DNA of 64,000 bases, taken from the IMG/VR virus record IMGVR_UViG_3300032236_001530, positions 1 through 64,000 of that record. One strand, given 5' to 3'. How positions within the stretch are numbered: the stretch's first letter is position 1; each line of letters begins with the position of its first letter. The notes beneath the pieces were generated by a model. That model searched no databases, was not told the origin of the DNA, and saw only the letters and a program-made list of their open reading frames with translations. A program made the position numbers and the translations under genes. Positions 59,492 to 61,298 of this stretch are shown here, in pieces. Source of the DNA: a virus.

Positions 59492-59520
59492 AAAAAAGAC
59501 CAAGATAAATCTTGGTCTTA
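59492..59520 (-). terminator. Terminator closing the ncRNA cassette
   Basis: aagaccaagat-aa-atcttggtctt with U-tract on minus strand. Confidence 0.75.
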
Positions 59521-59529
59521 AAAATAAAA

Positions 59530-60445
59530 CGCTGAGATTACACGTTCAGTGTGGCATCTTTGACTGGATTATTGTTTCCCAGTTTTATCCACCATCTTTT
59601 GAATGGTATCACCACAGTGACGGTTAGTTTGACTAACCACTTCTTGAGTTACTGAATACTCTCCACTTACTCTGCTTACTCAACCCTCGCAGGCTGATTC
59701 GGGATTCGACCCCCTATAAGTTTTTCGATGAAATCACATCCGCCTTTCGAGCTTATGTGGCTATGGACATCCCATAACTAAGTAGTCACCTTTCTATCAG
59801 TAACTAGGTAACACTTTCGATTTAAGTTTTAATTTTTACGTCAAAAAGTAAATTTTAGTGCTTGTAGATTGTGTCGAAGTAGTGGTCACCTCTCAGCTCC
59901 CAAAGCTTTTGGCCTCAAGAATACTGGACTACTCCGTGTGATGCCTCCATCACAACTCTTTAAGATATCTTCACCACGATTCACCTTACGGCTCACCTAC
60001 ACCCTTGGTAGAGTGATTAGTGTTCATTAACAGCACCACCTGTACAATGAATTGTCTTTCGACTTTGAGACACCTCTCAAGTTGAAACTCGCGATGATAA
60101 TAACTGGTGGGTCACCATTTCTCGCAAAATTTCTACAGGTTATTCTTATTGCTCTTCCGAACTCAACTGAACAATCTACACTTGCCCAGTCACCAATCCA
60201 TTTCCCTACGGAGTTACCCTCAGTACTTCAGGATTAGTGATATCCTGCTTGCTTACTCGACCTTGGTTACCCAAGACGCAAACACAATTCGCAGTTGTGT
60301 TCACTTTATCCCCCTTTCAAGGTTTATTTAACGACTATAAGCGGCCGTTGTCTTCACATTAGCCGAAGCTAATGATTCAACATATCATTCAAGGATTAAT
60401 AGACCTCACTGTCTATCAACTTACGTCTCTTGTGAGAGAACCTTT
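59530..60445 (-). ncRNA. Large structured ncRNA, GOLLD-like (~900 nt)
   Basis: GC-richer, no credible ORF, many GNRA/UUCG hairpins, 10-bp long-range helix (59863-59872 with 60171-60180), downstream of tRNAs; family assignment from size, context and recalled motifs; boundaries approximate. Confidence 0.7.
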
Positions 60446-60447
60446 AA

Positions 60448-60460
60448 TTTCAAAGAACTT
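60448..60460 (-). promoter_or_regulatory. boxA-like antitermination element
   Basis: AAGTTCTTTGAAA, identical copy at 61095-61107. Confidence 0.6.
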
Positions 60461-60514
60461 TATTTATAGTTTTTATTTTTACTTTGTTTAGAAAAATAAA
60501 AAATATTTTTTCTG

Positions 60515-60586
60515 TTGCGGGAGAAGGATTCGAACCAACGACCTTCAGGTTATGAGCCTGACGAGCTACCACTGCTCTATCCCACA
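60515..60586 (-). tRNA. tRNA-Met(CAT), initiator-like, T-stem with two mismatches
   Basis: TGTGGGA/TCCCGCA; AGAGCAGTGGTAGCTCG; TCAGG-CTCATAA-CCTGA; GTTGG-TTCGAAT-CCTTC. Confidence 0.85.
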
Positions 60587-60594
60587 ATTTGTAG

Positions 60595-60754
60595 TAGCCC
60601 GTAGAGGATTCGAACACTCTGTTTTCTAACCGAAAAGTTAGACGTCCTAAACATCAGGTCACGACTTGAGAGGATTGGCACCTTCTCATAACCCACCTTG
60701 GAGTCGTTTTGTTGACCGTCTGTTTCTCTTGCGAGTCCAGTAGACGAACGGGCC
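60595..60754 (-). tRNA. tRNA-Glu-like gene with ~85-nt D-loop insert and 8-nt anticodon loop
   Basis: GGCCCGT/ACGGGCT+A; TTCGTCTACTGG…TTTAGGAC; TCTAA-CTTTTCGG-TTAGA; TTCGAATCCTCT. Confidence 0.75.
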
Positions 60755-60813
60755 AAATAATTACCTAACATTGAACTTTTTGCCATATAGGACTTAGTCA
60801 AGTTAGGATTTTG

Positions 60814-60887
60814 TAGCGTGTAGAGGATTCGAACCTCTGTTCTTCGGGCGAAAACCCGACCGTCCTGAGCCGCTAGACGAACACGCC
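60814..60887 (-). tRNA. tRNA-Glu-like gene with 8-nt anticodon loop
   Basis: GGCGTGT/ACACGCT+A; GTC-TAGCGGCTCAG-GAC; GTCGG-GTTTTCGC-CCGAA; AGAGG-TTCGAAT-CCTCT. Confidence 0.8.
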
Positions 60888-60904
60888 ATTTGTTTTTTGT
60901 TTCA

Positions 60905-61298
60905 CAAAGATAAGAAGAATTTTTTAATCTACCAAATCTTTTTTCAATTTTTTTTATCTCGATTTAGTTGTTTACCTCCTTTCTGCCTGTAATCGGGAGG
61001 ATTACTGTATAATCAGGCTATTAACTTCTAAACCGATTTTGTTTTACAAAGATAAGGAGACTTTTTCATTTCACCAAATCTTTTTTTATTTTTTTTTCAA
61101 AGAACTTATCAGACGTTTCTGATTTGTTTTACAAAGATAAGGACACTTTTTTAATCTACCAAATCTTTTTCAAAAAAAGGGTTATGATTTTATCCTTCGT
61201 GATGGGGAGCGCTTATCATAATTAAGTTTTGCGTATTATACCAACACCCTTTGTTTCAATTGTGAATACAAAGATAGTATATTATTTTTAATTACAAA
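60905..61298 (-). promoter_or_regulatory. Four tandem Bacteroidota consensus promoters
   Basis: TATCTTTG at 60905, 61047, 61132, 61269, each with TTTG 20, 20, 20 and 18 nt upstream. Confidence 0.85.
61095..61123 (-). promoter_or_regulatory. boxB-like hairpin followed by boxA-like element
   Basis: ATCAGA-AACG-TCTGAT immediately before AAGTTCTTTGAAA. Confidence 0.55.

Follow-up and report, generated by a model that had tools for sequence, protein, structure and literature searches.

The 64,000-nucleotide (nt) window analysed here, positions 1 to 64,000 of IMG/VR virus record IMGVR_UViG_3300032236_001530 (linear, 155 kb, 83% complete), contains a non-coding cassette that runs on the minus strand from 61298 to 59496 and includes the large RNA GOLLD, a transfer RNA (tRNA) gene for methionine and two tRNA-like genes. 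Sequence comparison indicates that this phage GOLLD/tRNA operon carries a real, conserved and host-matched boxA leader. Its motif is identical to the boxA found in ribosomal RNA (rRNA) operons, rrn, of the host phylum, Bacteroidota, and the arrangement recurs at related phage loci. We consider it likely that the cassette is a stable-RNA operon on the host rrn plan, in which boxA would load host Nus factors for antitermination; the phage, that is, probably borrows the termination-resistant rRNA transcription machinery of its host. An rrn-operon-like reading had been put forward in the original prediction, made from the sequence alone, and it gained support from the host boxA identity, the conservation at GOLLD loci and the 2–4 tandem promoters of host rrn operons.

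NusB-S10, on binding boxA in the nascent leader and spacer of E. coli rrn, nucleates a complex with NusA, NusG, SuhB and S4 (PMC8632103; PMC12360218). The rrn complex resists Rho and works as an RNA chaperone, and boxB is dispensable (PMC8632103; PMC12360218).

The cassette leader begins behind a predicted promoter, P2 (61132–61163). A 5'-proximal hairpin in a boxB-like position, ATCAGA-AACG-TCTGAT (61108–61123; −5.3 kcal/mol), lies ~4–5 nt past the predicted start site and is followed by the 13-mer AAGTTCTTTGAAA at 61095–61107. The identical 13-mer recurs at 60448–60460 as a second, spacer-like site, ~10 nt 5' of GOLLD. Both copies of the 13-mer and the hairpin are present where they had first been noticed. 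By sequence prediction, the cassette boxA is on the transcribed strand, downstream of the promoter match at 61132–61163 and of others, with a long untranslated RNA following it. The longest minus-strand open reading frame between 61298 and 59496 measures at most 74 amino acids (aa), and both flanks are occupied by plus-strand open reading frames.

The cassette motif and Bacteroidota rrn boxA

Prokaryote genomes were scanned with a Bacteroidota-specific 34-mer of the 16S gene, which returned 120 rrn loci (L034–L153). Among the leaders of these Bacteroidota rrn loci, 50 of 81 contain the motif GTTC(T/A)TT(G/A)A, ~70–200 nt 5' of the 16S gene, as do 63 of 77 16S–23S spacers; the narrower GTTC(T/A)TTGA gave 10 background matches in 524 kb of flanks, both strands counted. 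The GTTCTTTGAAA of the cassette equals this leader/spacer motif and keeps the critical C at position 4, the phage host being known to phylum only. The exact 13-mer AAGTTCTTTGAAA occurs in six Bacteroidota rrn loci (four leaders, two spacers), and eight phage relatives match the spacer consensus aaAaGTTC(a/t)TTGACATATTG over 15 nt (GTTCTTTGAcatatt). The comparison with host rrn boxA that had been proposed as a check therefore did not refute the reading: Bacteroidota leaders and spacers carry the same motif. In the literature searched, we found no description of leader and spacer boxA with tandem promoters in Bacteroidota rrn operons. The cassette motif also agrees with boxA as defined by experiment, namely with the gammaproteobacterial consensus GYTCTTTAANA (10.1101/091223) and with B. 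subtilis, whose rrn transcripts start with a small hairpin followed by the NusB-binding AUGAUCUUUGAAA (PMC13753749).

Two variants of the motif divide the phylum. The rrn boxA is GTTCATTGA in Flavobacteriaceae and GTTCTTTGA in Sphingobacteriales, Bacteroidales, Marinilabiliales-type genomes and others, so that T or A at position 5 separates Flavobacteriaceae from other Bacteroidota orders. The variant in the cassette hints weakly at a Bacteroidota host outside Flavobacteriaceae.

Within the window, the 13-mers are by themselves not statistically compelling: three matches were found at up to one mismatch, where 0.67 would be expected, and three were also reached by 4 of 100 shuffles. This count is the one point in favour of a chance repeat in A+T-rich non-coding DNA; the weight of the 13-mers comes from the comparative data and not from the window count. 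The two cassette copies are the sole boxA-like sites in the non-coding DNA of the 155-kb record, where four other GTTCTTTGA sites all lie in apparent coding sequence and two looser boxA matches fall inside open frames of 497 and 667 aa. Motif specificity was checked in six phage genomes, the 155-kb record and five relatives, and all matches outside GOLLD leaders lay inside open frames of at least 185 aa, save one: a site in LR756502.1 (L172), distant from GOLLD, where the longest open frame has 70 aa. For a motif that several lineages keep, that equals the host rrn boxA and that occurs nowhere else in the non-coding DNA of the phage genome, a chance origin retains next to no probability. We rejected it on this comparative evidence, by which it appears effectively refuted already, and not on the window count.

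Conservation at homologous GOLLD loci

GOLLD ranks among the largest non-coding RNAs of bacteria and phages. What the original prediction had described as a ~900-nt structured RNA proved to be a GOLLD RNA of ~910 nt (59529–60440, the 5' boundary being approximate). Its conserved 3' domain at 59529–59936 scored 269.8 bits with RF02032 (gathering threshold 150) over model positions 1–416, the full model. By BLAST, GOLLD homologues were recovered from LR745206.1 (L001) and LR756502.1 (L002), both of them uncultured huge phages; the window GOLLD is 76–81% identical to these homologues, and alignment with them extends the 5' domain to ~60440. The large RNA thus has the properties that define GOLLD: a full-model score, a variable 5' domain joined to a conserved 3' domain, and a length of at least ~800 nt.

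The 5' domain contains an exact 31-nt block (two free positions) common to 25 viral contigs. Scans of viral contigs with this conserved block yielded 25 more loci, and a 3'-domain pattern yielded 13 more. The first locus set comprised seven lineages at 90% identity, with GOLLD RNAs only 60–81% identical to that of the window. Six of these lineages have the core GTTCTTT(G/A)A at a distance of 66–127 nt before the conserved 5' block of GOLLD, between diverged flanks and usually behind a hairpin; the core is also present in L157/L161 and L156/L160. A lack of conservation at homologous loci, which would have spoken against the reading, was therefore not what the survey found.

L001 has a first site composed of a promoter, the hairpin AACCA-GAAA-TGGTT and AAGTTCTTTGAA, and a second composed of tRNA-Met, GTTACTC-AACG-GAGTAAC and TAGTTCTTTGAAA, followed by GOLLD. 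The second site is homologous to the second boxA of the window, and the two-site layout of leader plus spacer is common to both phages. The same arrangement as in L001 was found in L157, a 483-kb phage, and L161, a 313-kb phage. A 16-locus cluster carries two or three promoters spaced ~91 nt apart and, past the last of them, TCGGA-AACG (or AGAG)-TCCGA, then GTTCTTTGAcatatt or GTTCTTTGAaatatt, then GOLLD. In L013/L028 and L016, a longer hairpin precedes the motif.

Another boxA type characterizes six loci of one sister lineage (group B), in which Bacteroidota promoters number 0.6 per 10 kb, as compared to 4.2 in the main group, and Shine-Dalgarno-like starts are more frequent. The motif of this lineage is GTTCTTTAA(C/A)A, the gammaproteobacterial boxA type, and GTTCTTTAACA or GTTCTTTAAAT stands before GOLLD and between tRNAs. 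AACGTTCTTTAAAT was found ahead of GOLLD and AACGTTCTTTAACAT behind the upstream tRNAs; the latter perfectly fits the gammaproteobacterial consensus GYTCTTTAANA, which has its critical C at position 4 (10.1101/091223). BLAST of the GTTCTTTAA lineage against cultured phages returned generic tRNA matches only and gave no host, so that these loci are no more than suggestive of a GOLLD-leader boxA that varies with promoter and host type. Because the type of boxA seems to go with the lineage of the host, the leader is a possible marker for host prediction.

All phage leaders have a hairpin before boxA, built on four different short stems according to lineage (ATCAGA/TCTGAT, AACCA/TGGTT, GTTACTC/GAGTAAC and TCGGA/TCCGA) and, in L013 and L016, as two longer hairpins. 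The stems are unlike in sequence and keep both pairing and position, which points to a hairpin formed in RNA and away from an operator for a protein. The inverted repeat and motif could in principle act as DNA, as an operator or a site near the promoter for a regulator of phage or host origin, and the hairpin is indeed a palindrome directly 3' of the −7 box. Stem sequences that differ wholly across lineages with pairing kept nevertheless point to RNA structure, the second site has no adjacent promoter, and the group B motif lies between tRNA genes; we regard a role as DNA as highly improbable.

In host rrn operons, a small hairpin directly before boxA was found at 20 of 70 spacer sites (29%) versus 14% of control positions (p = 0.003), and at 7 of 53 leaders, where it was not enriched. 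The label boxB given to the cassette hairpin in the original prediction therefore holds for its place before the leader boxA and is weak as a name, considering the host spacer figures and the hairpin that L002 has without boxA.

An alternative that is independent of Nus factors takes the hairpin and motif for RNA end-protection or processing signals. The hairpin would block 5'-end-dependent decay, and the motif, or a helix between leader and trailer, would mark the release of the tRNAs and GOLLD by nucleases. The position of the hairpin at the extreme 5' end of the predicted transcript agrees with such a role, as do the retention of a hairpin without boxA in L002 and the location of the motif behind tRNA 3' ends in group B. 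Leader and trailer are complementary over 27 nt (60453–60479 with 59487–59513; 70%, I1), but this A/U-rich pairing is of low complexity and known from the window alone, and we do not regard a leader–trailer helix as established by it. More difficult for this alternative is the motif, which matches the host rrn boxA letter for letter, flanks included, and stands not only immediately ahead of GOLLD but also a long way upstream. End protection or processing accounts for the hairpin better than for the motif; we judge it unlikely as the explanation of the two together, and it is compatible with Nus recruitment by boxA.

Promoters, tRNA-like genes and other cassette components

A scan for the Bacteroidota-type pattern TTTG-N17-21-TAnnTTTG gave 18 matches across the window, with 3.8 expected, and a sigma-70 promoter scan of the window showed no excess. 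Four predicted promoters (TTTG-N18-20-TAnnTTTG) lie within the cassette on one strand, in a span of 394 nt: P1 at 61269–61298 (TTTG-N18-TAtcTTTG), P2 at the leader, P3 at 61047–61078 and P4 at 60905–60936. The last three are copies of a 61-nt repeat (family D1), of which P4 is the reference copy. Four consensus promoters had been claimed, and four are present; they are of Bacteroidota type rather than sigma-70 consensus, and short RNA modules intervene between them, so that they do not form a single stacked block.

It is uncertain whether the P1 transcript extends into the remaining cassette. The segment downstream of P1, 61164–61262, folds no better than shuffles (z = −0.87) and ends in a GGGT...ACCC stem with a U run. 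A small folded RNA module occupies 60959–61036, between P3 and P4 (fold of 60950–61040: −19.2 kcal/mol, z = −2.84); the module had no match in an Rfam search and was not seen in L001 or L002.

Host rrn operons resemble the cassette in their promoters, with 2–4 tandem promoters 93–130 nt apart in 25 of 70 Bacteroidota loci and, in some, a boxA 19–22 nt past the −7 box. At the rrn locus L107, boxA is 20 nt behind two of its tandem promoters, and up to four promoters occur per rrn operon. A-tracts upstream of the −33 TTTG are common to host rrn and phage cassette promoters. Promoter mimicry was considered and rejected, as the host rrn and phage promoters differ 3' of the −7 box.

Two repeated elements accompany the promoters. 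In L001 and the 16-locus cluster, every upstream tandem promoter is followed by a conserved ~30-nt element, AGAGATAGATAACGATTCAGATACAAATCT (at ~2570–2600 in L001; at −260 to −230 and −170 to −140 from the GOLLD 5' block in L012 and L020), and the GOLLD RNAs of these loci are ~60–65% identical to that of the window. In the window, a 17-nt repeat (94% identical; 59451–59467 and 61264–61280) contains the P1 −7 box in one copy and, in the other, the −7 box of a further minus-strand promoter just past the GOLLD terminator, before the open reading frame 58551–59156.

Between P4 and GOLLD lie three tRNA or tRNA-like genes. The first (60813–60887) was called 'tRNA-???' by ARAGORN and scored 47.1 bits with the Rfam tRNA model; its anticodon-arm loop, TTTTCG, has 6 nt, or 8 nt with the closing pair opened. 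The second (60595–60754) contains the same TTTTCG loop and an 85-nt D-loop insert, and its ends are 87–91% like those of the first (repeats D2 and D7). ARAGORN made no call on it, neither for the intact sequence nor when the insert was excised in 238 trial versions, and it is therefore tRNA-like by similarity only. The third is a tRNA-Met (CAT) at 60514–60586, identified by ARAGORN and Rfam (62.9 bits). Three tRNA-like genes had been reported before; ARAGORN and Rfam bear out the tRNA-Met and the first tRNA-like gene, and the one at 60595–60754 is accepted through its likeness to the first.

In the window and in four huge phages, L001, L002, L157 and L161, GOLLD is accompanied by tRNA-like genes whose anticodon arm ends in (C/G)TTTTC(G/A)(G/C) and has a 6-nt or 8-nt loop. 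They sit upstream and/or downstream of GOLLD (L001: 2651–2755, 3846–3950 and 4035–4124; L002: 2775–2893 and 3837–3910), and several have D-loop inserts of ~22 to 85 nt. In L012 and L020, ~+930 to +1000 past the GOLLD 5' block, the opposite strand carries GGTTCGAACCCCTCTACCTCCA, which resembles the T-arm and acceptor end of a tRNA or transfer-messenger RNA (tmRNA) and may belong to a tmRNA gene convergent with GOLLD.

An A/U-only hairpin at 60466–60506 (inverted repeat I3, 15 nt, 93% complementary, supported by folding) precedes the second boxA. At the far end of GOLLD, the closing terminator of the original prediction was recovered as a strong intrinsic terminator at 59496–59519, with a 10-bp stem and a T run (−12.9 kcal/mol, z = −5.75); none was predicted upstream of 59519 within the cassette. 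Rfam matches in the window were to GOLLD and tRNAs only.

Proposed mechanism and comparison with known systems

In the mechanism that we propose, the tandem host-type promoters would start untranslated transcripts, and the nascent RNA would expose a short 5' hairpin followed by a host-type boxA, with boxA again just before GOLLD. By analogy with rrn, host NusB-S10 would bind boxA and, together with NusA, NusG and further factors, would produce a fast, Rho-resistant polymerase and aid RNA folding. Transcription could then run through to the terminator at 59496–59519, and the ~1.7 kb of untranslated structured RNA, comprising the tRNA-like genes, tRNA-Met and the 910-nt GOLLD, would be made in full and folded. 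Nus binding, antitermination with read-through, assisted folding and high output are what we infer from the arrangement of the cassette.

A profile search of the phage record, 83% complete, found neither NusB nor NusG, and phage-encoded Nus factors were rejected on this basis. A Bacteroidota control genome has both, the Pfam NusB family having been found in that of B. thetaiotaomicron; host factors would thus be the ones used. Bacteroidota also possess Rho (PMC12360218).

Several observations weigh against this mechanism, in addition to the modest window count of the 13-mer. Transcripts from P3 and P4 would be without the leader boxA, and the second boxA of the window has no G+C hairpin and is preceded only by the A/U hairpin. 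The Bacteroidota boxA is itself identified by sequence and position only. No boxA is present in LR756502.1 (L002), although its GOLLD is homologous and a 5' hairpin, AAATCA-GAA-TGATTT, is kept, and about eight shorter marine GOLLD loci from the 3'-pattern scan, located directly behind a protein gene, have no boxA-like motif. Together, L002 and the marine loci indicate that boxA is not required for GOLLD in general, and the loci compared place it as a lineage-specific feature. Finally, boxA in some contexts (suhB, hisG) can promote Rho termination (PMC12360218).

GOLLD is a cage-forming 14-mer found in phages, often beside tRNAs, for example 3' of tRNA-Met (10.1101/2024.12.08.627333), and its expression goes up during lysis according to work cited there. 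In a stronger version of the proposal, GOLLD production would depend on the host rRNA transcription-and-folding complex: without boxA-loaded Nus factors, and perhaps S4 or SuhB, Rho would end the RNA prematurely or the RNA would misfold, and no 14-mer cage would form. We offer this version as speculation and think it unlikely. If it were true, GOLLD would be a second natural client of the transcription machine of ribosome biogenesis, with a leader that tracks the boxA dialect of the host.

A further possibility is that abundant boxA-bearing transcripts also deprive host rrn operons of NusB-S10. Taken as the sole purpose of the motif, such a decoy would draw NusB-S10 off host rrn and shut down ribosome synthesis. 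An exact host-type boxA behind several strong-looking promoters and the cited rise of GOLLD expression during lysis would suit a decoy, but each transcript has only one or two sites, and these always stand where the unit opens and immediately ahead of the long RNA, a placement that suits an element acting in cis; we find this explanation very unlikely. End protection or processing, a decoy and a DNA operator all explain the exact identity with the host boxA less well than Nus recruitment in cis, which we regard as the most economical reading. On the latter reading, the host-type boxA leader would be the first concrete handle on GOLLD production, pointing to host Nus factors and Rho, and it suggests that co-transcriptional assistance may matter for GOLLD folding and assembly.

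The cassette shares with described GOLLD loci (RF02032) the conserved 3' domain at full length, the phage setting and a tRNA-Met directly upstream, and differs from them by the addition of a leader with promoter, hairpin and boxA. A literature search, judged by title and abstract, returned no paper that appears to link GOLLD with boxA or antitermination.

In the bacterial rrn operon, tandem promoters are followed by boxB, boxA and boxC. With it, the cassette has in common tandem promoters, a hairpin and then boxA at the transcript start, tRNA genes within the unit, another boxA ahead of the large RNA and a long untranslated structured product, and its boxA is identical in sequence to that of host-phylum rrn. 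It differs in being phage-borne, in the small RNA modules between its promoters and in its products, which are GOLLD, tRNA-like genes and tRNA-Met in place of rRNA. A search of the 155-kb record with the small-subunit rRNA model gave no match; with no rRNA in the genome, the cassette would be rrn-like in its working and is not an rrn operon.

Lambda nut sites consist of boxA followed by boxB and need the N protein. They resemble the proposed action of the cassette in that a phage transcript with boxA and a hairpin modifies host polymerase via Nus factors. In the cassette, by contrast, the hairpin precedes boxA at every site and boxA is the full host rrn consensus. The order of elements thus sets the cassette apart from lambda-type nut sites, and no N-like protein was identified, although no search was aimed at one.

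The use of boxA beyond rRNA genes is known from the suhB leader and other predicted bacterial targets (10.1101/091223). Those sites, however, regulate mRNAs and can promote Rho termination, and the survey that predicted targets excluded non-coding RNAs (10.1101/091223).

Among phages, the closest precedent comes from T7, which has a boxA downstream of its early promoters A1–A3. There too a host-type boxA follows tandem strong promoters for the host polymerase, with no lambda N-type protein, and mutations in the T7 boxA element have a phenotype (PMC3709561). The T7 boxA precedes early protein-coding genes, whereas that of the cassette heads a wholly non-coding operon, in another phylum and in the GTTCTTTGA variant.

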